Assembly (NCBI GenBank): GCA_040770465.1
Contig: JAXGJB010000043.1
Location: 1 to 22,821, forward strand
Direction: 5' to 3'
Source: Methanothrix sp.
GTDB taxonomy: Archaea; Halobacteriota; Methanosarcinia; Methanotrichales; Methanotrichaceae
Length of the DNA stretch: 22,821 nt
Position 1 is the first letter of the stretch, and every line of letters starts with the position of its first letter. Below the pieces are notes generated by a model. It was not told the origin of the DNA and searched no databases. It saw only the letters and a list, made by a program, of their open reading frames with translations. Positions 7,848 through 17,461 of this stretch are shown here, piece by piece. A program made the translations under genes and the position numbers.

Positions 7848-8540
7848 GTGACGCCACCTTCTGCCCCCTCCGCCGAAGAGAGGAGACGTTTATTCTCGCT
7901 CCAGGACGATGTCGCGTCCAGGGTCGTCCTGGAGGACCGGTTCTCTGAAAAGGTGGTCGCCGGGGTCGACCAGGCCTTCATATCCGGGGAAGAAGGCGGA
8001 GAGTTGGTGGTCAGCGGGGCCGTCGCCCTCGACTCGTCCCTCCAGCTCATCTCCAAATCCTGGGCGGTCATCGAAACGACTTTTCCTTATGTTCCGGGCC
8101 TCCTCTCTTTCCGGGAGGGAACTTGTGCCGTGGAGGCGGCGAGGAGGCTCGACCCCGCCCCCACCATCCTCTTCGTCGACGGCTGCGGGATCAACCATCC
8201 CCGGAGAGCGGGGCTTGCAAGCGCCATAGGCGTCTCCCTCGACCTTCCCACCGTGGGCGTCAGCAAGAACGTCCTCTGCGGCAGCTTCGATCCGCCCCGT
8301 CGGGTGGGGGACGCCTCGCCCCTGGTCCATCGGGGAGAAATGGTTGGCTACGTCCTCTTCTCCAAAAAGAGGTGCCGTCCGATCGTGGTGGCTCCGGGCC
8401 ACCGGGTATCCGTCGAGTCGGCCCTGACTCTCGCCCAGCGGTACCTCCGGGACCACAAGCTTCCTGAGCCGTGTTTCTTGGCTCATCAGCATGCAAATGA
8501 CGTGAAGCGCCGAATTTTGAGAAAAGAGATATCTATTTAA
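7848..8540 (+). CDS. nfi: Endonuclease V (deoxyinosine 3' endonuclease)
   Basis: AGVD, FPYVPGLLSFRE, VDGCGINHPRRAGLAS, GVSK, KLPEP. GTG start abuts the upstream stop codon. Confidence 0.96.
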   Translation: MTPPSAPSAEERRRLFSLQDDVASRVVLEDRFSEKVVAGVDQAFISGEEGGELVVSGAVALDSSLQLISKSWAVIETTFPYVPGLLSFREGTCAVEAARRLDPAPTILFVDGCGINHPRRAGLASAIGVSLDLPTVGVSKNVLCGSFDPPRRVGDASPLVHRGEMVGYVLFSKKRCRPIVVAPGHRVSVESALTLAQRYLRDHKLPEPCFLAHQHANDVKRRILRKEISI

Positions 8541-8589
8541 TTAGGGAATTAATTTTGCAAGAGTCAACTTGCGGCGATGCACCACGCAG

Positions 8590-8622
8590 AATCAAATTTC
8601 GTGCGACCACCCCGCCCTAAAG
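8590..8622 (+). mobile_element. Truncated copy of an IS200/IS605-end-like hairpin element
   Basis: AATCAAATTTCGTGCGACCACCCCGCCCTAAAG is 29/33 identical to 16805-16837. It stops one base after the TAAA loop, so the 3' arm of the hairpin is missing. Confidence 0.6.
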
Positions 8623-8732
8623 TGCATCGGTTCAGGGTCCATCCCCGCGTCAATGAGGACCGGGACCTCATCGAGGATCAGGTAGACTTTGCCGTCGAAG
8701 GGCGAGCCTGAAACCTTGTGCACTTCCACCAT
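8592..8732 (-). pseudogene. 5' fragment of a metallo-beta-lactamase-fold hydrolase gene
   Basis: My translation: MVEVHKVSGSPFDGKVYLILDEVPVLIDAGMDPEPMH, then out of register into the hairpin element (FRAGWSHEI*). VYLI...VLIDAG is MBL motif 1, and the HxHxDH motif is never reached. AGGTG RBS and host-like GC-rich codons. Confidence 0.7.
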
Positions 8733-9172
8733 TCCAACACCTGACCCCCGAATGGTCTTCATCGATATATCTGTTTGACATCGCTGGACATTAAGAGATG
8801 ATCAATGGGCGGGTCATTTTAGTCATATGTATTTAGCCCCCAAAAATCGCGAGCATGATGCGGGTTTCGTCTAATAGAAACACGTCGACCAGCAACTTGT
8901 GCGAGAATAAAAAGGATACATAATTTTTAAGTTAATTGAAGTTAGCTTTCTGGAACTGGCCACGCGACATCAGATCTATCGAGTCTAAAGATGCTGTTTG
9001 TTGGGTGCTAATAGTACGATAACAGAAGGTTCTAATTTAGTTATAAAATTATATATTAAAATTATGTTAACAGGAATCTATCGAGTCCATGGTTTGTGTC
9101 AGAACGGCTATAAAGACAGAAAAATCAATGTGCAAAGTAGTTAAATTGCGGTTAAGACGGGCAGGAGATAAG

Positions 9173-9511
9173 ATGATACCTTGGCTTCTGACAGCATCAG
9201 CATATTCGGTTCCGAGTGAGATCGGCGTTGGGCTTGAACCACATGAGCGACCAGAACTGATCCTCTGGCTCATTGTAGCCGCAGTATCGTTAATACCTCT
9301 TGTGATATTTTCTGTAAGCTATTATAGGGTAAGAAGCCCAAAATTACTGATAACAACCCTAGCATATTCCCTTTTCTTTGCCAAAGCGCTGATTTTAGCA
9401 ATGAAACTCTTTGTACCCAATTACGTTGATGAGATATGGTGGTCAGTTGCTGCCATATTGGACATCATTATAATAAGTCTCATCGCCTATTCACTGGGAA
9501 GGAAGTCATAA
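9173..9511 (+). CDS. Small membrane protein (3 TM), paralog of 16123-16494
   Basis: Three hydrophobic helices. ATG 9173 has an AGGAG RBS and is preferred over 9089. Stop lies 6 bp before the wHTH gene. Confidence 0.8.
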   Translation: MIPWLLTASAYSVPSEIGVGLEPHERPELILWLIVAAVSLIPLVIFSVSYYRVRSPKLLITTLAYSLFFAKALILAMKLFVPNYVDEIWWSVAAILDIIIISLIAYSLGRKS

Positions 9512-9517
9512 AATCGT

Positions 9518-10039
9518 ATGCAAGATGATGCCACCCTTGAGAACCGAAAGCTGATATTCGACTACATCTCAGATCATCCAGGAGTGCATCTGAGGAAAAT
9601 TTCAAGGGATATTAGTATACATCTTAGTACATTGAGATATCATCTGAATTATCTTGAGAAAGAAGGATTGATAACGTGCCAAAAACAAGGTAATCTAAAG
9701 CTATATTTCGTCTCTGGAAAGCTCAATCCCCACGAAAAAAATCTGACACCTTTGCTTCAACAGAAGCGTTTTCGAGACGTTGTAATCATCATAATAAAGG
9801 CTCATGAGCTTACGTCATCACAAATAGCTGAGAAGCTATCTGTGAATCCATCAACCGCCTCTAAATATATCAAGATTTTAGAGAGGAGAGGAGTAATATC
9901 CCACAAAAAAGTTGATGGGAAGAAGATATATTACCTAAACGACGAAGAGAACATTGTTAAAATTTTGTTGACATATAAAAAATCTATGTGGGATTCCTTT
10001 GTGGACAACGTTTTGGAGATATATCTTGAGAGAGAATAA
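9518..10039 (+). CDS. Tandem winged-helix transcriptional regulator (ArsR/MarR-like double wHTH)
   Basis: Two HTH units: HPGVHLRKISRD...STLRYHLNYLEKEGLI and LTSSQIAEKL.VNPSTASKYIKILERRGVI. C-terminal helix shared with 15571-16116. Confidence 0.9.
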   Translation: MQDDATLENRKLIFDYISDHPGVHLRKISRDISIHLSTLRYHLNYLEKEGLITCQKQGNLKLYFVSGKLNPHEKNLTPLLQQKRFRDVVIIIIKAHELTSSQIAEKLSVNPSTASKYIKILERRGVISHKKVDGKKIYYLNDEENIVKILLTYKKSMWDSFVDNVLEIYLERE

Positions 10040-10094
10040 TTTACACTTTGTGCCATGATTTACACTTTGTGCCATAATTGACACTTTGTGTCAA
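10036..10094. repeat. Three tandem 19-bp repeats; the third contains a perfect palindrome (operator-like array)
   Basis: ATAATTTACACTTTGTGCC / ATGATTTACACTTTGTGCC / ATAATTGACACTTTGTGTC. TTGACAC-TTT-GTGTCAA at 10078-10094. Confidence 0.9.
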
Positions 10095-10108
10095 AAAGGC
10101 CTTATACA
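10093..10108 (+). promoter_or_regulatory. Putative BRE/TATA for the PsbP-like/ABC operon
   Basis: AAAAAGGC-CTTATACA immediately follows the palindrome. Confidence 0.5.
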
Positions 10109-10224
10109 TCGCAATACAACAGGGATTATACTAATCCGCACCCCCAAAATGCATCCCTCCCTACATATACGAGTATGCGGATTAGTTATTCTGATTACAG
10201 GAAGTTCGCAGAAGAGGTATCGAT

Positions 10225-10362
10225 ATGAAGAAGTATTCGAAATGCGGGTTAAAGTGTCTCTCCATGCTGATGGCGCCCTCAATTGAAGTGGCCTTTGAGG
10301 AGAAAGACACCGCCGCCAAGAAGGCAATTTCAACGAAGGATATCGAGGTGCAAAAAATATGA
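10225..10362 (+). CDS. Small 45-aa ORF, possibly a deletion remnant of a secreted protein
   Basis: MKKYSKCGLKCLSMLMAPSIEVAFEEKDTAAKKAISTKDIEVQKI*. GAGGT RBS upstream and an ATGA overlap with the next start. Not in the ORF track. Confidence 0.5.
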   Translation: MKKYSKCGLKCLSMLMAPSIEVAFEEKDTAAKKAISTKDIEVQKI

Positions 10363-10970
10363 ATGAGAAAGTAATAGTTATTTTTATCCTTACCTTTGTA
10401 GCTCTCGGTTTCTTAACATTCTACACATTCGGGCCATCTTCAACAACACGTATAGGCCCGCAAATTAACCCAGAGTCATTGAAACCCGTAAAAGTGGAAG
10501 TCACGAATCAAAACAAAGAATCTTTTGTAGAATACCATAACAAGGATATCACTGAGAATTTCTATTCCGTGAGAATCCCTCAATCCTGGCAGATTCAGAC
10601 AAATATATCTCATCCAGGTGGATACGATTTCCTGTACGATAAAGGAACGGCAAAGATTGAACTTATGGATGTCCCGGATAACAGCACTCTTGAACTTTTC
10701 ATACTAAGCCAGGAAGAGCCCCGGCTCAAGAGCTTGCTTCCCGGATACGAACGGATCGGTTATCAACAGATAAAAGTAAATGGATATGATGCGTACCAAC
10801 TTTCGATTCTGAGCGATGCGAACGGAATTAGAGACGAAAGCATCAAAACCTACATCACAGGCCCGGATCAGGCGGCAGTATTTACCTATTCGCTCCAACA
10901 GGACATGGTCGCATCGCTTCAGGAGACATTCAACCTCGTGACTAACAGTTTCCATTGGGAGAACAACTAA
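10359..10970 (+). CDS. Membrane-anchored extracytoplasmic protein, PsbP/Mog1-like fold
   Basis: N-terminal TM anchor. YSVRIPQSWQ, IKVNGYDAYQL, AVFTYS and FNLVTNSFHW resemble PsbP-related proteins. GAGGTG RBS. Confidence 0.7.
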   Translation: MNEKVIVIFILTFVALGFLTFYTFGPSSTTRIGPQINPESLKPVKVEVTNQNKESFVEYHNKDITENFYSVRIPQSWQIQTNISHPGGYDFLYDKGTAKIELMDVPDNSTLELFILSQEEPRLKSLLPGYERIGYQQIKVNGYDAYQLSILSDANGIRDESIKTYITGPDQAAVFTYSLQQDMVASLQETFNLVTNSFHWENN

Positions 10971-10971
10971 C

Positions 10972-11166
10972 ATGAGGCAAATTTTTCTTTTTATATCTCT
11001 TGCCGTGTTGGGCTTTGGTCTCTATTTGAGGCTCATTTACGATGTTCCCGACAGCCAAGAACAAATTAACTTCTTTGTAAGCTGGTTCTTGATCATAATC
11101 GCTCTTTCAAGCATGCTGATAAATCTCTTCTGGGACACCAAGAAAAAAAGAACTGATGGAGAGTGA
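10972..11166 (+). CDS. Small 2-TM membrane protein
   Basis: Two hydrophobic helices and a basic C-terminal tail. 1 bp from the upstream gene, GTGA overlap with the downstream gene. Confidence 0.8.
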   Translation: MRQIFLFISLAVLGFGLYLRLIYDVPDSQEQINFFVSWFLIIIALSSMLINLFWDTKKKRTDGE

Positions 11167-11912
11167 GGCATCTGACAGACATAATCACTGTAGAAAAGCT
11201 GAGCAAATCATATGGGAACAGAAAGGCCGTCGACGACCTGACCCTCCACATACAAGCGGGAGAATTCTTTGGATTCCTCGGACCAAATGGCGCTGGAAAA
11301 ACGACAACCATACGGATGCTCACGGGAGTTCTCAAGCCGGATCAAGGCAAGGTAGTAATTGATCAGCATATATTGCCAATACATAAAAAAGAAGTCTCTC
11401 AAATCATAGGCGTCAAGCCGGAGAGTCGAGGCTTATACGATTGGATGACAACCACGGAATATCTCTATTTCTTTGCCCGTCTCTATGGAATAGGAGAAGA
11501 CCGATTAAAAGAGCATGTTGATGCTCATCTTTCACAAGTGGGGCTCAATGATCGGAAGAAATCGAAGATCGGGACTTTCTCTCTCGGCATGCGGCAACGA
11601 CTGGGACTTGCGCGCACGCTCATCAATAATCCAAAAATTCTTTTCCTTGATGAGCCTACTCTTGGTCTAGATCCACAAGGCCAGGAAGATGTCCAGCAAT
11701 TGCTCAAGAAGCTTAACCGCCAGGGTGTAACCATCTTTCTATCATCCCATCTCTTGAATGAAATATCCAATCTCTGCACGCGAATAGGAATTATCGATAA
11801 CGGAAAGCTGATTGTGGAAGGGAGAATCGATGACCTTGAGAAAATGCCGGAATTACAGGATAAAACGCTCACTCAGATCTTCTTACAACTGACCAGCAAG
11901 GGAGATGAATGA
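11163..11912 (+). CDS. ABC-2 type exporter ATP-binding protein
   Basis: Walker A GPNGAGKT, signature FSLGMRQR, Walker B ILFLDEP, H-loop SSHLL. Confidence 0.96.
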   Translation: MRHLTDIITVEKLSKSYGNRKAVDDLTLHIQAGEFFGFLGPNGAGKTTTIRMLTGVLKPDQGKVVIDQHILPIHKKEVSQIIGVKPESRGLYDWMTTTEYLYFFARLYGIGEDRLKEHVDAHLSQVGLNDRKKSKIGTFSLGMRQRLGLARTLINNPKILFLDEPTLGLDPQGQEDVQQLLKKLNRQGVTIFLSSHLLNEISNLCTRIGIIDNGKLIVEGRIDDLEKMPELQDKTLTQIFLQLTSKGDE

Positions 11913-12684
11913 TTTGTTCAAATTTATTTGGAAAAAAGAATTACAGGGAGAGTTCTATACCTGGAAGAGCATGACCTGGCTGGTTATCGCTTCGATCCTT
12001 TTTAGCTTTACAAGCTATCTTCTTCTTACAAATCGAGAGCTGAGTCTCCTGGATCAAACCGAACTAATGTTGCTTTTTGGGCAGATCATTATCGGGGTCG
12101 CCCTTCTAATTATAACGATAGATGCTTCATCCATAATTACCGCTGAATTCGAGAATGAAACTGCAGAGAGCCTTTTTTTAACACCGCTTTCGTTAAAGGA
12201 CTTCCTATTAGGAAAATTTTTAGCTTCACTCACCCTCTGGGTTTTCCTATTTATAGTCTCCCTGCCCTACATCGTTGTCACTTCATCAGGCTCTCATCTA
12301 ACTCTTGAATTTATTGGCTACATAGCCCTCCTCGGTACGTTGGGCCTAACAGGAGTGACGGCTTTTATTTTCGCGATTTCTTTGCTCCTTCGCTCCACCA
12401 AAAATACTCTCACAACCTCTCTTATTGTAATCCTGGTTCTTACTACGCCGGCACTCTTCTCTACTACGCTTAAGAATAATGTTCCATCCCAGGTCTTGAG
12501 CCAGATAAATCCCATCGACAACATATTTTTGTCACTTGACAATGTTCTTGTCGACTACCAGACCTCACTTTTGCAAAATTGGCATTTTATTTTGCCGCTT
12601 CTCATATTCTGCTTATTGATGTTTGGATTCCTGGTTATTGCTGCCAAAAGGTTCACTGAACAGGGGGTTATCAAAAATGATTGA
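11905..12684 (+). CDS. ABC-2 type exporter permease
   Basis: About 6 TM helices. IWKKEL and EFENETAESLFLTPLS...FLLGKF are typical of ABC-2 permeases. Confidence 0.9.
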   Translation: MNDLFKFIWKKELQGEFYTWKSMTWLVIASILFSFTSYLLLTNRELSLLDQTELMLLFGQIIIGVALLIITIDASSIITAEFENETAESLFLTPLSLKDFLLGKFLASLTLWVFLFIVSLPYIVVTSSGSHLTLEFIGYIALLGTLGLTGVTAFIFAISLLLRSTKNTLTTSLIVILVLTTPALFSTTLKNNVPSQVLSQINPIDNIFLSLDNVLVDYQTSLLQNWHFILPLLIFCLLMFGFLVIAAKRFTEQGVIKND

Positions 12685-13219
12685 GAAGATAAAATTCGGT
12701 TCTATCTTAGTCACAGGGATTCTTATGATCCTCTTAATGGGCACAGCTTCCGCCAGAAGCAGCCCACCGACTCTTTCCATAGAGATTACATCATCAAAAA
12801 CATTGAATGGCACCGCCGGAGATTATGTGACGGTAAATGGAACAATAAAAAATACAGGAGACAAACCACTCCAAGATATTGTCACCTACCTGTCGCTAGT
12901 CGACAATGAAACTAAGCTCCCTGTCGATCTCGAAGATTGGAGTGCGGAAAAGGGGCTGCACATTGGCACTATCGAAGCCAATCAAACGTTGCCGCTCAAC
13001 TGGAAGATTCATTTTGTGAAATCTGGTGCGTACTCTTTAATAATCGTTGCAGAAGTTGCCGGCAACGAGTTGCCCCAAGTGAGCAGCATCACTCAGTTTC
13101 ATGTAGATCCCAAAATCAATCTCAATCCTGGAGAGGTACTCCCAGTTGCCTTGGGAACCCCCCTTATTCTGAGCTTTGTGTTGATCCTATTAGCGCACAA
13201 AAGGAGACTTGAGGAGTAG
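12677..13219 (+). CDS. Secreted Ig-like (CARDB-like) protein with C-terminal TM anchor
   Basis: Signal peptide ending TASA, a beta-rich core (VTVNGTIKNTG, VDLEDWS, LNWKIHFVKSG), and a C-terminal TM followed by HKRR. ATG 12677 overlaps the permease end. Confidence 0.75.
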   Translation: MIEKIKFGSILVTGILMILLMGTASARSSPPTLSIEITSSKTLNGTAGDYVTVNGTIKNTGDKPLQDIVTYLSLVDNETKLPVDLEDWSAEKGLHIGTIEANQTLPLNWKIHFVKSGAYSLIIVAEVAGNELPQVSSITQFHVDPKINLNPGEVLPVALGTPLILSFVLILLAHKRRLEE

Positions 13220-13353
13220 GTGAGATTTTTTTCGTTGCCCGAGGTTTTCTGGTGGCCTACCCCAAATGGGGTGAAGCATATGTTATGGTTTTAACGCCCA
13301 ACAACTCGCTAAATAGACTACCCATTATTCGATAATTGAACTAATATTCTATA

Positions 13354-14490
13354 GAGGATTTCGAATAACCCAAACATCGCAATGTTTATATACTATTATT
13401 ACTATAATTAACTCATGAATTCTTTAATCACATTTGCCTTACGAAAGAAGTACGAATCGATGGAGAAGGTTGGAGATCCTTTAGCTGATATTGGTTGTCT
13501 ATTAGACTGGGAGAGATTTCGGCCGCTTTTATCCGATATGTACGATAATAAGAGCGAAAAGGGAGGTCGACCCAATTACGATGAGGTCCTGATGATCAAG
13601 GTCCTTGTTTTAGGTCAATGGTACGGGTTGACGGATAAGGCGCTTGAACGAGAAATTTCTGATAAGATATCTTTCATGAATTTTCTAGGATTTCCTGAGA
13701 AGGCCCCCGACTCATCCACCATCTGGCTATTCAAAGAGCGTCTAATAAATACCAGAAAATATAATCCTGTGTGGGAAGAGATCAATCGTCAGCTCGATTC
13801 CCTCGGTTTAGTAGTCAGGAATGGCAGCATCCAGTATGCAACGTTCATCACAGCAGATCCAGGACACGCCAAAGCAGACAAGCCTCGCGGAGATGAAGCA
13901 AAAACAAGAAGAAGTAGTGATGGCACGTGGACAAAGAAGGGAAGCAAATCATCTTTTGGATATAAGCTTCATTCCAAAGTCGACAGAGAATTTGGCCTCA
14001 TAAGAGATCTGGAAACAACAACAGCGTCACTACATGATAGTCAGGTGGATCTATCCGAAGAAGGAGAAGTTGTATATCGTGATAAAGGGTATTTTGGAGT
14101 TGAGGCAAAAGGTTACTCAGCCACTATGAACCGGGGTACGCGAGACCATCCATTGAGCATTCAGGATGAGATGAGAAATCAACGGATCGCTAAAAAGAGG
14201 GCTCCCGGTGAAAGACATTACGCCATTATTAAACGAGTGTTTAGAGCTGCACATGTCATGGTCACAACCATTGCTAGGGTCCATGTCAAAATGATATTCA
14301 CTGCTATCGCATTTAATCTGCTCCAATTGCGAACTCTGAAAAAACAAAATGCCTTCTAGCGGAGGCTATCTATCTGAATCAAGAAATGAACATGTTAGAG
14401 GCGAATAATGGCCCCAAGTAGAACATAAAGATCAAAAATATTGGCGTGGAGCTTTGTAGGATCGCAGATCGCCGGTTAATAGAAATCCTC
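13354..14490 (+). mobile_element. IS5-family insertion sequence, 1137 bp
   Basis: 17-bp terminal IRs GAGGATTTCGAATAACC (13354-13370) and GGTTAATAGAAATCCTC (14474-14490), 15/17 match. TATA on both flanks (13350-13353, 14491-14494) is the probable target duplication. Confidence 0.93.
13415..14359 (+). CDS. IS5-family DDE transposase, probably inactive (first catalytic Asp replaced by Tyr)
   Basis: GGRPNYD, QWYGLTD, PDSSTIWLF, FGYKLH, YRDKGY, R.PGER...K. It has IQYAT where the family has I.DAT. Confidence 0.92.
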   Translation: MNSLITFALRKKYESMEKVGDPLADIGCLLDWERFRPLLSDMYDNKSEKGGRPNYDEVLMIKVLVLGQWYGLTDKALEREISDKISFMNFLGFPEKAPDSSTIWLFKERLINTRKYNPVWEEINRQLDSLGLVVRNGSIQYATFITADPGHAKADKPRGDEAKTRRSSDGTWTKKGSKSSFGYKLHSKVDREFGLIRDLETTTASLHDSQVDLSEEGEVVYRDKGYFGVEAKGYSATMNRGTRDHPLSIQDEMRNQRIAKKRAPGERHYAIIKRVFRAAHVMVTTIARVHVKMIFTAIAFNLLQLRTLKKQNAF

Positions 14491-14646
14491 TATAATCGGA
14501 CTACTGATTACTTAACCATAAAAAGGGTCATTTAGATTACCGATTAGGTAGCCATTACCAGTTGGATATCAAGCACTATGGGATGATAGCACGAAACGAT
14601 GGCGAAGACCGAAGAGCACAACCAGCTGTAGGCTGGAGGTTGTATT

Positions 14647-15444
14647 ATGAAAAAGTTGCCGCTAGTTGTACTGCTCAGTACATTAGTTATGGTCTCCTCA
14701 GCGTTCGGTATTGGTGTAGAGGATTCAACCCCAACAAAGGCGGCTGAGGACATCAACAACATGATCATCGACCCGTCTAACTTCGTCGAGACGATTGATA
14801 ACCCATATTTTTCTCTCAATCCTGGCACGAAGTTCACCTACGAAACCGATGGCCAGGATGGAGCTGATGACCTGAATGAAACTGAAGACCAGGATGAAGT
14901 TGATGACGAAGATGAAACTGAAGACCAGGACGAAGCTAATGACGAAGACGAGTTAATAGAAACAGTTTACGTCACCAGTGGGACAAAAGAGATCCTTGGC
15001 GTAACTTGTGTCGTTGTTACATCCACTGAAATTGTTGACGGAGAATTATTGGAGATAGCGTCCGAATTGTACGCACAGGACAAAGAAGGCAATGTGTGGT
15101 TACTTGGGGAGGACTGGACCAACTACGAAAACGGAGTAGCCGATAGAACTGGATCATGGAAGGCAGGTATAGATGGCGCCACGCCTTTCATCGCGATGAA
15201 AGCTGCCCCCCAAGTTGGTGATTCCTACAAAGGCGAGGGTGCGGATATGGTTGAAGTGATCAGCTTGACAGAATCTGTCTCGGTGCCCTATGGATCTTTC
15301 GACAACTGCTTGAAGGTCAAAGAGGGGTCAGAACTTGATGAAACTGGCAGCTTCGAGTACAGATATTATGTCCAGGAGATAGGCCTGATCTTAGAAATCG
15401 ATGGATTTGAACGAAAGGAACTGGAGAATGTCGAAACGTTCTGA
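14647..15444 (+). CDS. Secreted acidic hypothetical protein
   Basis: GGAGGT RBS and a Sec signal peptide. IDNPYF, YAQDKEGNVW, GSWKAGIDGA and VPYGSFDNCL look like conserved blocks of an uncharacterised beta-rich family. Confidence 0.85.
   Translation: MKKLPLVVLLSTLVMVSSAFGIGVEDSTPTKAAEDINNMIIDPSNFVETIDNPYFSLNPGTKFTYETDGQDGADDLNETEDQDEVDDEDETEDQDEANDEDELIETVYVTSGTKEILGVTCVVVTSTEIVDGELLEIASELYAQDKEGNVWLLGEDWTNYENGVADRTGSWKAGIDGATPFIAMKAAPQVGDSYKGEGADMVEVISLTESVSVPYGSFDNCLKVKEGSELDETGSFEYRYYVQEIGLILEIDGFERKELENVETF
14842..14949 (+). repeat. Three 36-bp in-frame repeats encoding an acidic insert
   Basis: ETDGQDGADDLN / ETEDQDEVDDED / ETEDQDEANDED. Confidence 0.85.
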
Positions 15445-15455
15445 GCACCCCAGAG

Positions 15456-15487
15456 GAAATGTTGGATCTCCTCAGATCCAACATTTC
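15456..15487. terminator. 14-bp perfect hairpin between convergent genes
   Basis: GAAATGTTGGATCT-CCTC-AGATCCAACATTTC followed by TATTCTTT. Confidence 0.65.
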
Positions 15488-15570
15488 TATTCTTTGTAGT
15501 GAGAAGTAGATCATCATATACACCATAGAAGTGAGACCATGAAAAGAAACATATTCTTGCTTGTATATTC

Positions 15571-16116
15571 CTAACTTATGTCCCACATCTCAATTACCCT
15601 GTCGACGAGAGAATCAAAAAAACTCTCTTTATAAGTTACCAGCAAATTTATAATCTCATCCTCATCGATTAGAATTTTATAATATGTATTCCTTCCATCT
15701 TTCGCTGACACTACTATTTCACTGTCCTCTAACTTTTTCAAATGCCATGAGACTGTAGAGGGGGAAAGATCAACGAACTGAACTATATCTTCATGATTGC
15801 AATTTTGATGTGTTAATATAAATAGTAATATATCTCTGACACTTTTTTGCCTTAATAATCCTAATAATATTTTATTCTCGGATTTGAACTGCCTTGGAAA
15901 ATAGAGCAATTTATTACCATACTTTTCTTCCTTGATCAGCCCATGTCGGCTCAAATAATTGAGATGATACTTCAATGTGCCTGTTGGTAATCCGCTTATC
16001 CGTTCAAGCTCCCTGAAATGGCATCCTGCAAACTTTTGCACAAGATTGTATATATTTCTCCGAGTATCTAACTCAAGTACTCGATTCTCCTCGCTAACAG
16101 GGAAATTGGAATGCAT
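15571..16116 (-). CDS. Tandem winged-helix transcriptional regulator, paralog of 9518-10039
   Basis: GCHFRELER...GTLKYHLNYLSRHGLI and DLSPSTVSWHLKKLEDSEIV. C-terminal LLVTYKESFFDSLVDRVIEMW. GAGG RBS. Confidence 0.9.
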   Translation of the reverse strand: MHSNFPVSEENRVLELDTRRNIYNLVQKFAGCHFRELERISGLPTGTLKYHLNYLSRHGLIKEEKYGNKLLYFPRQFKSENKILLGLLRQKSVRDILLFILTHQNCNHEDIVQFVDLSPSTVSWHLKKLEDSEIVVSAKDGRNTYYKILIDEDEIINLLVTYKESFFDSLVDRVIEMWDIS

Positions 16117-16122
16117 ATCGCC

Positions 16123-16494
16123 TCATTTTTTCAATATCCCGAAGAAAAAGCTCGCAAGAATTGCGAAATCAAGCAGCGACGCGGCCAGATCTACCCAGGC
16201 AGCTTGGGGAAAAAACATTTCAGATATTTCTATAAATCCTTTAATAGCAAATAACAAGAATGCGACGGTAACATACAGGAATTTTGCTCTTTTGTCTCGT
16301 TTGTATGCCATTGCAGTTATAATAAATAGTGCAAACGCTAAAATGCTGCTACAGAATATGAGGACGTTCTCTGCCTCGATTCCAGGATAAAGGATTAAAT
16401 CGCCTTTGTCGTACGTGAAGGCATGTGAAGATAATGGCATTAGGGATAAAACGAGAAAAGCTGCTGATAACAATACATGAGTTCTTTTGGTCAT
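16123..16494 (-). CDS. Small membrane protein (signal peptide plus 3 TM), paralog of 9173-9511
   Basis: ATG 16494 follows a GGAGGAGG RBS. Signal-like N-terminus ending SSHA and three TM helices. Stop lies 6 bp before the wHTH gene. Confidence 0.85.
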   Translation of the reverse strand: MTKRTHVLLSAAFLVLSLMPLSSHAFTYDKGDLILYPGIEAENVLIFCSSILAFALFIITAMAYKRDKRAKFLYVTVAFLLFAIKGFIEISEMFFPQAAWVDLAASLLDFAILASFFFGILKK

Positions 16495-16804
16495 TATGTC
16501 CTCCTCCATCAAGAATGAATCAAAGGCGCTAATTTTGCTGCCACTTCGGCTTTACTTACCAACCAGATCTCGCTTTGCATTGACGGGAGCCACCATGCTC
16601 ATTATCAATTATAAATATCATATACCTTTCGCCGATAACTCGATATATCCCTCCGAATCGCCATCGTGGGACTTATTACTCCCAGCGCGGCATTACCCGC
16701 CCCGTCATCTCCATGTACCGCCGGTCCTTCCTAGACCCGCTCGACTTCCGTCTCGCCATCGACGATCACCGCTGAGAAGGTTTCTGTGACGATCGAACAA
16801 TCTC

Positions 16805-16862
16805 AATCAAATTACGTGCGGCCACCCTGACCTAAAGGTCGGGGTATTCGTGACCTCCGCAC
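16805..16862 (+). mobile_element. IS200/IS605-end-like (REP/MITE-like) hairpin element, complete copy
   Basis: Inner hairpin ACCCTGACC-TAAA-GGTCGGGGT and outer stem GTGCGG (16816-21) / CCGCAC (16857-62). Resembles the subterminal hairpins of HUH-transposase elements. No tnpA/tnpB is adjacent. Confidence 0.6.
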
Positions 16863-16900
16863 TCTCGAAGTAGTAAAAATGAGAAATTTAGAGATAAGCT

Positions 16901-17461
16901 CTATCTCTGGCAAATCTCCCTCTCGACGTCCAGAAGCCTCCGTTTCAGGTCGACGCCAGAGCTGTAGCCTCCGATGCTCCTCGCTCCCACCACCCGGTGG
17001 CATGGAATTATCAGCGGGAACGGATTTTTTCCCAGGGCCTGGCCCACAGCCCTCGCGGCTTTGGGCCTTCCGAGCCGTTCGGCCAACTGGCCATAGGTCA
17101 TCGTCTCGCCGGGCGGGATCCTTGACGTGACCTCCAAAACCTCCCTCTGAAACTCAGTGAGACCCGAGAAGTCGAGTTCGAAGGGGACCGGCTCTCCCTT
17201 CAGCCAGCATCCCAGAAGGGCCTCTTCCTCATCCGGCGGGACCTGATGCTTCGGCCTCTCGACGGAGAAGTCGATCTTCCTGATCATGCCATCGCGCCTC
17301 TCCACCAGAAGGTAGAGGCCAAAAGGCTCCAGAAAGAATCCCTCAGCAGATTCACCATCCTCCGGAAGAGATCGCCTCCTCGAGGGCAGGAAGGCCGTCT
17401 CTCCGGAGTGGTCGGGGCATGCCGCGCGGTCGGAGAAGTCCCTCTCGATCTTCCTGGTCAT
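16901..17461 (-). CDS. ogt: Methylated-DNA--protein-cysteine methyltransferase
   Basis: TEFQREV, IPPGETMTYGQLA, ARAVGQAL, active site IPCHRV. ATG 17461 overlaps the upstream stop (ATGA). Confidence 0.93.
   Translation of the reverse strand: MTRKIERDFSDRAACPDHSGETAFLPSRRRSLPEDGESAEGFFLEPFGLYLLVERRDGMIRKIDFSVERPKHQVPPDEEEALLGCWLKGEPVPFELDFSGLTEFQREVLEVTSRIPPGETMTYGQLAERLGRPKAARAVGQALGKNPFPLIIPCHRVVGARSIGGYSSGVDLKRRLLDVEREICQR

Follow-up and report, generated by a model that had tools for sequence, protein, structure and literature searches.

The window analysed here, a stretch of 22,821 nucleotides (nt) from a Methanothrix sp. assembly (GCA_040770465.1, contig JAXGJB010000043.1, positions 1 to 22,821), contains two copies of a two-gene unit that face each other, one on the forward strand (9173-10039) and one on the reverse strand (16494-15571). 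In each unit a gene encoding a small membrane protein, memA or memB, is followed by a gene encoding a regulator with two winged helix-turn-helix (wHTH) domains, regA or regB. The two families are referred to as MEM and REG, and the two units as modules A and B. An earlier note, made from the DNA sequence alone, had placed both units at these positions with a gap of 6 nt between their genes, and both details are correct. It had further suggested that the membrane protein holds the regulator by its C-terminal tail and thereby controls the envelope genes lying between the units. We found the pair, which is often a triad with an exported protein, to be a genuine module that is widely distributed among archaea and unpublished, and for which a signalling mechanism is plausible. 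The features of the locus are collected in Table 1.

Two sets of genomes were used to follow the pair. A class sample of 201 genomes was searched with MEM as the anchor, giving a match in 35 genomes and returning 30 loci, 20 of which were enlarged to ±9 kb. A separate scan of named genome records, anchored on REG, gave 80 loci of ±3 kb. In 29 of the 30 MEM-anchored loci the next gene after MEM is a co-directional REG, the exception being a weak match (E 1.5e-4), and the order MEM then REG is found in 20/20 enlarged loci, with REG split into two open reading frames (ORFs) in locus L044. When REG is the anchor, MEM is located directly upstream of 30 of the 35 short-form REGs (175-205 aa) in the class sample and in 73 of the 80 named loci. 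The remaining seven comprise four with less than 330 nt of upstream DNA, one where no ORF was called and two that are genuinely without MEM. The distance between the MEM stop and the REG start has a median of 7 nt and ranges from -11 to +14 in 68 of the 73 loci. MEM-REG is a widespread, strongly conserved and uncharacterised archaeal operon.

The earlier note had mentioned similar gene pairs in other euryarchaea. They are present there, but the range is far wider and includes DPANN archaea, Thermoplasmatota and Bathyarchaeia. The labels of the 80 loci are Woesearchaeota, Nanoarchaeota, Pacearchaeota, Aenigmatarchaeota, Iainarchaeum, Altiarchaeota, Methanosarcinales, Methanoperedens, Methanogaster, Methanocaldococcus, Methanoregulaceae, Methanolobus, Methanococcoides, Methanosarcina, Thermoplasmatota and Bathyarchaeia. 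Two metagenome-assembled genomes (MAGs) in the scan are labelled as bacteria. No account of the MEM-REG pair was found in the portions of the published literature available to us, including work on PepSY and on regulators that are sequestered or bound to the membrane in archaea.

Some oddities were seen among these loci. MAG contigs labelled Patescibacteria (L109) and Binatia (L137) carry an archaeal-type MEM-REG, 63% and 47% identical to regB, respectively, which reflects either mis-binning or transfer. In two genomes REG is interrupted by a stop codon, TAA in G116 (L044) and TAG in G087 (L091/L183), as a result of either gene decay or sequencing error.

The regulators of the two modules are 37% identical over 165 residues (E 6e-34) and therefore paralogues. 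Both are above the cut-off of 31 bits for PF24266 (HTH_HVO_0163_N), with 41.0 bits for regA and 66.3 bits for regB, and they are the only proteins in the whole genome to pass it. The second wHTH is of the ArsR type in each; against the ArsR/SmtB model NF033788 (cut-off 55) regB scores 75 bits and regA 49.6 bits, and both are below the cut-off of 100 for the SdpR model NF033789 (regA 40.4, regB 47.2 bits). The Pfam matches listed for REG are almost all HTH or winged-helix families and include no sigma-70 family, and none was found for MEM either. The statement that the recognition helices differ between the two copies is true for wHTH2 but not for wHTH1, where they are nearly identical (TLRYHLNYL in regA, TLKYHLNYL in regB). 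The tail described as common to both copies is conserved across the whole family, from methanogens to haloarchaea, as an acidic, amphipathic C-terminal helix, LLxxYKxSFxDxLVDxFxE, with an invariant Asp.

In the AlphaFold model of regB, the predicted local distance difference test (pLDDT) score is mostly 86-96 in both wHTH domains and falls to 70, 52 and 43 in the last three ten-residue blocks, so that the tail is poorly modelled. A modelled helix of low confidence is usual where a partner is needed. A Foldseek search of the PDB with this model returned only generic tandem winged-helix proteins (ScpB, RPC62 and SelB; template modelling score, TM-score, ~0.3) and single ArsR/MarR domains, and no informative full-length relative among the PDB structures. 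The closest solved relatives of the second wHTH are the ArsR, SmtB, HlyU and MarR repressors.

MemA and memB are much more distant from each other. Pairwise BLASTP gives a non-significant E of 0.66, and the alignment made by eye in the earlier note carries no weight alone. The profiles of the two families, however, align over 81 columns with an hhalign probability of 95% (E 3.4e-8), and memA and memB are thus homologous, as distant paralogues. In the protein collection 57 relatives of memA and 4 of memB were found, the window's own proteins included, and an exhaustive profile search gave 622 MEM clusters (50% identity) at E<=0.001, the best 150 of which are all 67-184 aa long.

 MemB scores 14.7 bits and memA, scanned as the longer 140-aa ORF 9089-9508, 10.8 bits against DUF7471 (PF24283, cut-off 27), and memA scores 17.3 bits against DUF5985 (PF19447, cut-off 27.3), all below the cut-offs. 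Among 25 MEMs scanned at E<=1, 20 match DUF7471 (best 2.7e-6) and 15 match DUF5985 (best 1.5e-7), again mostly below the cut-offs, and a precomputed PF19447 label is carried by 6 of the 57 memA relatives. For memB, the Protein Atlas gave only unnamed archaeal clusters and leads to DUF7471, DUF7521 and DUF5985.

As judged from hydropathy and a positive-inside reading rather than from a dedicated predictor, MEM probably has three core transmembrane helices (TM1 to TM3), with the N-terminus outside and a C-terminus of 2-5 residues inside, and a conserved basic loop, Y-x-R-x-R-R-x-K, that would be cytoplasmic. A Lys and an Asp were said to be kept in both copies, at the end of TM2 and within TM3, respectively; both copies do have them, but the Lys is in the middle of TM2 and not at its end. 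Among 262 family members this pair is K/D in 139, M/N in 29, R/D in 23, K/E in 19 and K/N in 18, with 34 other or gapped. The two positions covary, being K/D, R/D or K/E in 181 of the 262 and M/N in 29, which would fit an intramembrane contact between TM2 and TM3. The M/N rows of alignment A6, 11 in number, all come from loci L045-L058.

DUF7471 is a mainly haloarchaeal family, found above its cut-off in 53 of 401 sampled genomes of the phylum. Its profile aligns with that of MEM over 73 columns (hhalign 90%, E 1.6e-6), and a full-length HVO_0163-type REG is encoded within 1.5 kb of 25 out of 30 haloarchaeal DUF7471 genes. In 24 of these 25 the alignment runs from model positions 12-18 to 175-180, and one of the neighbours scores 125.5 bits against PF24266, which regA and regB also pass. 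The architecture of wHTH1, wHTH2 and C-terminal helix is common to regA, regB and the haloarchaeal members of PF24266. Given the likeness of the profiles and the shared neighbour, we regard the window pair as the methanogen/DPANN version of a DUF7471 and HVO_0163 pair. The linkage between the two families, proposed earlier as a check of the idea, is thereby supported from two sides, by 73 of 80 REG-anchored loci and by 25 of 30 haloarchaeal ones.

The two versions also differ. The haloarchaeal pairs are mostly divergent (17 of 25), with REG co-directional and directly downstream in the other eight, and memA and memB are below the DUF7471 cut-off. Furthermore, haloarchaeal DUF7471 proteins (alignment A5, L060-L087) share an invariant Arg in TM2 and, where TM3 begins, an invariant motif, H-H-x-x-(E)-H-x-x-D, which may be a metal site, whereas memA, memB and the other methanogen/DPANN forms are without this histidine motif. 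Neither DUF7471 nor PF24266 has a described function, and no mention of DUF7471, PF24283, PF24266 or DUF5985 was found in the literature available to us. HVO_0163 itself is listed, in the one text found on it, as an ArsR-type protein that is more abundant after hypochlorite stress (PMC10294847).

The pair often has a third, exported member. Genes of the c3 family, whose window member lies next to module B, immediately precede MEM-REG, in the same orientation, in 9 of the 20 enlarged loci, and 18 of the 80 named loci contain one. In 69 loci an upstream gene is in view; the gene right before MEM, on its strand, encodes a c3 or PepSY protein in 32 of them, and in three more such a gene is located two genes before MEM. 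These 32 exported partners comprise 12 c3 proteins and 20 members of a cluster whose sampled members carry PepSY, and PepSY was above its Pfam cut-off in 7 of 8 proteins tested. Many loci from DPANN archaea and Methanosarcinales MAGs have, in place of c3, an upstream gene for an N-terminally anchored PepSY-repeat protein, and one c3 protein has a PepSY domain fused to its C-terminus. The model of c3 is all-beta (pLDDT 74.7), and its best matches in the PDB are exported YmcC-like proteins and lipoproteins (E 7e-7, TM-score 0.40-0.49); LolA-like and RseB-like folds are far down the list as weak matches (E ~0.2). The set of partners spans the outside (PepSY or c3), the membrane (MEM) and the cytoplasm (REG).

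The earlier description of the neighbouring genes as envelope-type holds beyond the window, since exported proteins and ABC-2 exporters recur beside the module. Genes for an ATP-binding cassette (ABC) ATPase and an ABC-2 permease are found next to it in L042, L043 (in the order of module A) and L046, and ABC genes in 8 of the 80 named loci, the other 72 having none within 3 kb. ABC genes like those of the window are also located beside fused paralogues of REG. Loci L039-L041 are from the genus closest to module A; there the genes after MEM-REG encode a Lamin-tail-domain protein (PF00932) and a membrane protein with DUF347 repeats, in place of the ABC exporter.

The fused paralogues were counted among the 150 matches listed for REG in the class sample. 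About 93 of the 150 are proteins of 220-320 aa from a neighbouring family. In all ten that were read (10/10) the wHTH pair comes after 1-3 N-terminal hydrophobic segments and a short stretch that is presumably external, and none of the ten has the REG tail; the two scanned by Pfam were both above the PF24266 cut-off. A membrane link of this DNA-binding module, as supposed earlier, is thus seen in its paralogues. Another 20 of the 150 are proteins of 490-720 aa from the window's own family, and the two that were scanned combine the wHTH pair with HisKA, HATPase_c and receiver domains. The wHTH pair of the kinase fusions is up to 62% identical to regA, and the REG tail continues unbroken into the HisKA helix. 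The same DNA-binding module has been wired repeatedly, in evolution, to membrane anchors and to a kinase. The window pair was right to be called kinase-free, with no kinase domain in either protein, and a Pfam scan of the island genes found neither a HisKA/HATPase_c kinase nor a receiver domain. This sets it apart from two-component systems, as kinase and receiver domains occur only in the fused paralogues of other genomes.

The 220-320-aa proteins were also considered as true MEM-REG fusions, and this was rejected, as their membrane part aligns with MEM at an hhalign probability of 0.4%. In the hybrid histidine kinases of L094 (G184) and L097 (G116), the HVO_0163-type wHTH pair occupies the usual place of the sensor domain, and the position of the phospho-accepting His is Phe in L094 (SFDIR) and His in L097 (SHGVR). 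Loci L101 (G179) and L102 (G143) have 2-3 membrane-anchored REG paralogues within 12-17 kb, and between these are multi-TM proteins and ABC ATPases that are 42-44% identical to that of the window.

The likeliest mechanism, at somewhat less than an even chance (roughly 0.45), is that MEM and REG form a kinase-independent, membrane-coupled transcription switch. In such a switch MEM would report an envelope or membrane cue, possibly via the exported partner, and would, through a putative contact with REG, set the amount of active dimeric REG at the DNA. REG would then control its own operon together with adjacent envelope genes; in module A these would be the genes of the ABC-2 exporter, in module B the c3 gene. 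Counting for a switch are the tight linkage of the two genes, the exported and exporter neighbours, the covarying positions in TM2 and TM3, and the attachment of this DNA-binding module to membrane or signalling parts in other proteins. The earlier idea is weakest, and doubtful, where it has MEM hold REG by its tail. Out of 35 short forms, the five whose genomes gave no MEM match keep the tail, and it runs into the HisKA helix of the kinase fusions; this position at the start of the kinase dimerisation (DHp) helix favours a role in dimerisation. In favour of a tether, the tail is missing from the membrane-anchored paralogues. A complex prediction for regB and memB, run without controls, gave a score of 0.00 and is informative neither way.

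Several observations weigh against a switch. The five short-form REGs just mentioned, tail included, are from genomes without a MEM match (G165 and four genomes of one genus); in that genus c3 genes flank REG on both sides. The cytoplasmic surface of MEM, by the hydropathy reading, amounts to about 7 loop residues and 2-5 C-terminal residues, a small area for docking. The anchor of the fused paralogues shows no detectable relationship to MEM (hhalign 0.4%), so that these fusions argue by analogy only. A MEM-REG fusion was not found: the best 150 of the 622 MEM clusters are all 67-184 aa, and a search for longer proteins, which is weak evidence, gave none. Of five models of c3 only one is good (pLDDT 74.7), and the fold assignment depends on it and on TM-scores of 0.40-0.49. 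Finally, 17 of the 25 haloarchaeal pairs are divergent, a layout that regulators typically share with the genes they control.

The main rival reading is a serious possibility. In it REG is an ordinary autoregulated ArsR-type repressor responding to a cytoplasmic signal (metal, redox or oxidant), and MEM and the exported protein or exporter are its targets only, with MEM taking no part in sensing or in the control of REG. Classically, an ArsR-type repressor shares its transcript with the membrane efflux protein under its control, which counts for this explanation. It is consistent with the ArsR/SmtB-like second wHTH, for which regB scores 75 bits against NF033788 (cut-off 55) and whose nearest solved relatives are the ArsR, SmtB, HlyU and MarR repressors, with the 17 of 25 divergent haloarchaeal pairs, with the five of 35 short-form REGs that have no detectable MEM and with the tiny cytoplasmic surface of MEM. 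The invariant H-H...H...D motif of haloarchaeal DUF7471 could bind a metal, and the HVO_0163 protein increases after hypochlorite stress, according to the accessible part of PMC10294847. However, the His motif is absent from the methanogen/DPANN forms, and the three-helix MEM of 87-130 aa matches no transporter or enzyme family, its Pfam matches being DUF families only. A plain repressor with its targets also leaves unexplained why the same DNA-binding module has repeatedly been anchored to the membrane or fused to a kinase, and why MEM comes first with such tight spacing. REG differs from the ArsR/SmtB metalloregulators, which its second wHTH resembles in fold and sequence, in having an extra N-terminal wHTH and the C-terminal helix, and regA (49.6 bits) is below the NF033788 cut-off of 55. 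Were this explanation to hold, a regulator would be assigned to two Pfam families of undescribed function, and a three-gene envelope module of exported PepSY/beta-barrel protein, three-helix membrane protein and regulator would still be defined.

A more far-reaching form of the membrane-coupled switch is tentative and on balance unlikely. The operon would be a so far unrecognised system for signalling across the envelope without a kinase, ancient and widely distributed among DPANN archaea, methanogens, haloarchaea, Thermoplasmatota and Bathyarchaeia. In it an exported PepSY or LolA/YmcC-like beta-barrel sensor would act on a minimal three-helix charge-pair transducer and this on a dimeric double-winged-helix factor. 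It would be an archaeal counterpart of the logic of sigma-E/RseA/RseB or SdpC/SdpI/SdpR, built from unrelated parts, and in the paralogues with a membrane anchor or a kinase one output module would have been wired differently. The sigma-E/RseA/RseB system has three tiers, an exported, a membrane and a cytoplasmic transcription protein, and the beta-barrel-like c3, MEM and REG likewise form three tiers, with weak LolA/RseB-like matches of c3 (E ~0.2). The module differs from this and other extracytoplasmic function (ECF) sigma/anti-sigma systems in that REG is a wHTH protein instead of a sigma factor, MEM consists of three TM helices with hardly any soluble part, no site-1 or site-2 protease is linked to the module, and the best match of c3 is to a YmcC-like exported protein (E 7e-7) of undescribed function. 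ToxR and CadC are membrane-bound one-component regulators, and the 220-320-aa REG paralogues resemble them as HTH proteins anchored by TM segments of their own. The same can be said of ArnR/ArnR1 of Sulfolobus, membrane-bound one-component regulators in the account partly available to us (PMC13286277). The HTH of ArnR is N-terminal, whereas in the fused REG forms the TM segments are N-terminal, and the anchor in the window, if any, is a separate protein; we liken them without a claim of homology.

To our knowledge, archaeal transmembrane signalling is poorly understood beyond two-component and chemotaxis systems, and we know of few recognisable sensors in many DPANN and methanogen genomes. The MEM-REG operon is small, very widely distributed and directly testable, having relatives in genera with established genetics. 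The PF24266 family is named after a Haloferax volcanii protein, and the pair is present in named records of Methanosarcina, Methanolobus, Methanococcoides and Methanocaldococcus.

An immunity circuit of the SdpR/SdpI type is improbable. In Bacillus subtilis, the accessible part of PMC2910880 describes how SdpI, on binding SdpC, sequesters the ArsR-family autorepressor SdpR at the membrane, and it describes homologues of SdpI with three transmembrane segments, which correspond to the part thought to sequester SdpR. By this precedent, MEM would bind or neutralise a secreted peptide or protein, possibly one exported by the ABC-2 system, and the loaded MEM would sequester REG, with de-repression of the operon. 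There is a likeness in that a small multi-pass membrane protein and an ArsR-like wHTH repressor share one operon without a kinase, and sub-threshold SdpR matches (regA 40.4, regB 47.2 bits; cut-off 100) and the recurrence of ABC-2 exporters and exported proteins as neighbours are in line with it. Against this, SdpI was absent from the best 25 of 48 Pfam families for any of the 25 MEMs at E<=1 and from the scans of single proteins at E<=10. In addition, REG carries a pair of wHTH domains, the gene order is reversed, with MEM first here and sdpR before sdpI in the section of PMC2910880 available, no candidate toxin peptide gene was recognised and no toxin ligand is known here, and ABC genes are missing within 3 kb of the module in most cases (72 of the 80 loci). 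SdpR/SdpI may serve as a working analogy, but membership fails.

The inward-facing bracket, which the earlier note had made part of the design, did not recur. A second module is absent from all 20 loci at ±9 kb and all 80 loci at ±3 kb, so that the bracket is found in this window only. What the units bracket is a real low-GC island, with a guanine-plus-cytosine (GC) content of 37-46%, whereas the flanks have 55-63%. The alignment with congener genomes stops at about 8521 and resumes at about 16901, with their flanks 35-75 nt apart, and of the 15 further genomes of the genus at least 10 have the flanks without the island (examples are G020, G128, G122 and G064). As the flanks are contiguous in congeners, the block is an insertion of about 8.4 kb. 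The nearest relatives of memA and regA are in other genera of the same family (MEMs 65-84% identical, REG E 1e-62 to 1e-76), whereas those of regB, at 60-70% identity, are in MAGs labelled Woesearchaeota and Methanosarcinales. With an IS5 element between the modules in addition, the island looks mosaic. Both modules arrived on this foreign mosaic island of about 8.4 kb, and their inward-facing layout looks like an accident; for this genome, the whole region is such an island and not a designed two-sensor unit. That the inverted modules have a function as the two ends of a mobile element, for instance in island maintenance or transfer, is very improbable, as their position at both ends of an insertion missing from congeners and the IS5 element inside it are set against the lack of a second module in the 20 and 80 loci, the absence of an integrase and of long terminal repeats from 8400-17000 (Pfam and repeat searches) and the different nearest relatives of the two modules, which fit a mosaic.

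Table 1. Features of the island and the two MEM-REG modules (positions in the window).
Feature	Position	Strand	Basis or remarks
Low-GC inserted island, ~8.4 kb	8522..16900 (limits approximate)		GC content and congener alignment
memA, 112-aa small membrane protein	9173..9511 (longer ORF from 9089)	+	Hydrophobic N-terminal segment and 3 TM; DUF7471/DUF5985 superfamily
regA, 173-aa tandem winged-helix regulator	9518..10039	+	PF24266 and ArsR-type wHTH; conserved C-terminal helix
Three tandem 19-nt repeats	10036..10092	+	From regA stop codon, upstream of exporter genes; candidate operator
203-aa N-terminally anchored protein, cluster c22	10359..10970	+	Sub-threshold DcrB match only
64-aa hydrophobic (TM) protein	10972..11166	+	No Pfam match
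ABC transporter ATPase	11163..11912	+	PF00005, E 1.8e-30
ABC-2 type permease	11905..12684	+	PF12679, PF12698
198-aa protein, signal-like N-terminus, hydrophobic C-terminus	12623..13219	+	CARDB and FxLYD matches weak, below cut-off
IS5-family insertion sequence	13350..14494	+	Transposase ORF 13415-14359; 21-nt terminal inverted repeats; NF033581 217.9 bits; PF05598, PF01609
c3, 265-aa exported all-beta protein, acidic repeat insert	14647..15444	+	Family usually directly upstream of MEM-REG
Perfect 14-nt inverted repeat	15456..15487		Between convergent c3 and regB
regB, 181-aa tandem winged-helix regulator	15571..16116	-	regA paralogue
memB, 123-aa small membrane protein	16123..16494	-	Signal-like segment and 3 TM; distant memA paralogue

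The 19-nt repeats after regA, two of which are identical over 14 nt while the third has one change, are located 270 nt upstream of the exporter genes and could be an operator for a protein with two winged helices. No further copy was found elsewhere in the window, and in a search for a conserved operator comparable tandem repeats (21-25 nt) were seen near the module in only 2 of 15 other loci (L049 and L058). A c22 protein also follows MEM-REG in two further genomes of the family (L042 and L043), and the true start of the 198-aa protein is probably internal. The inverted repeat between c3 and regB is likely a terminator hairpin. The ATG of memB at 16494 is preceded by a GGAGGAGG stretch.

On contig C41 (19363-21399) of the same assembly (G000) both flanks occur once more, contiguous and without the island, at 86-94% identity, so that either the assembly mixes two related populations or a duplicated region is present. 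The sequencing runs containing 8900-16700 are digester-type metagenome DNA only, four of them possibly the source, and no RNA run was listed. At the left edge of the island, a 56-aa ORF on the reverse strand (8592-8762) resembles, by eye, the N-terminus of a metallo-beta-lactamase fold; it is probably a gene fragment that came with the island. Within the c3 gene, an array of 18-nt repeats (14842-14949) encodes the acidic, D/E-rich insert of the protein, at which other members of the c3 family have a gap, with acidic linkers elsewhere.

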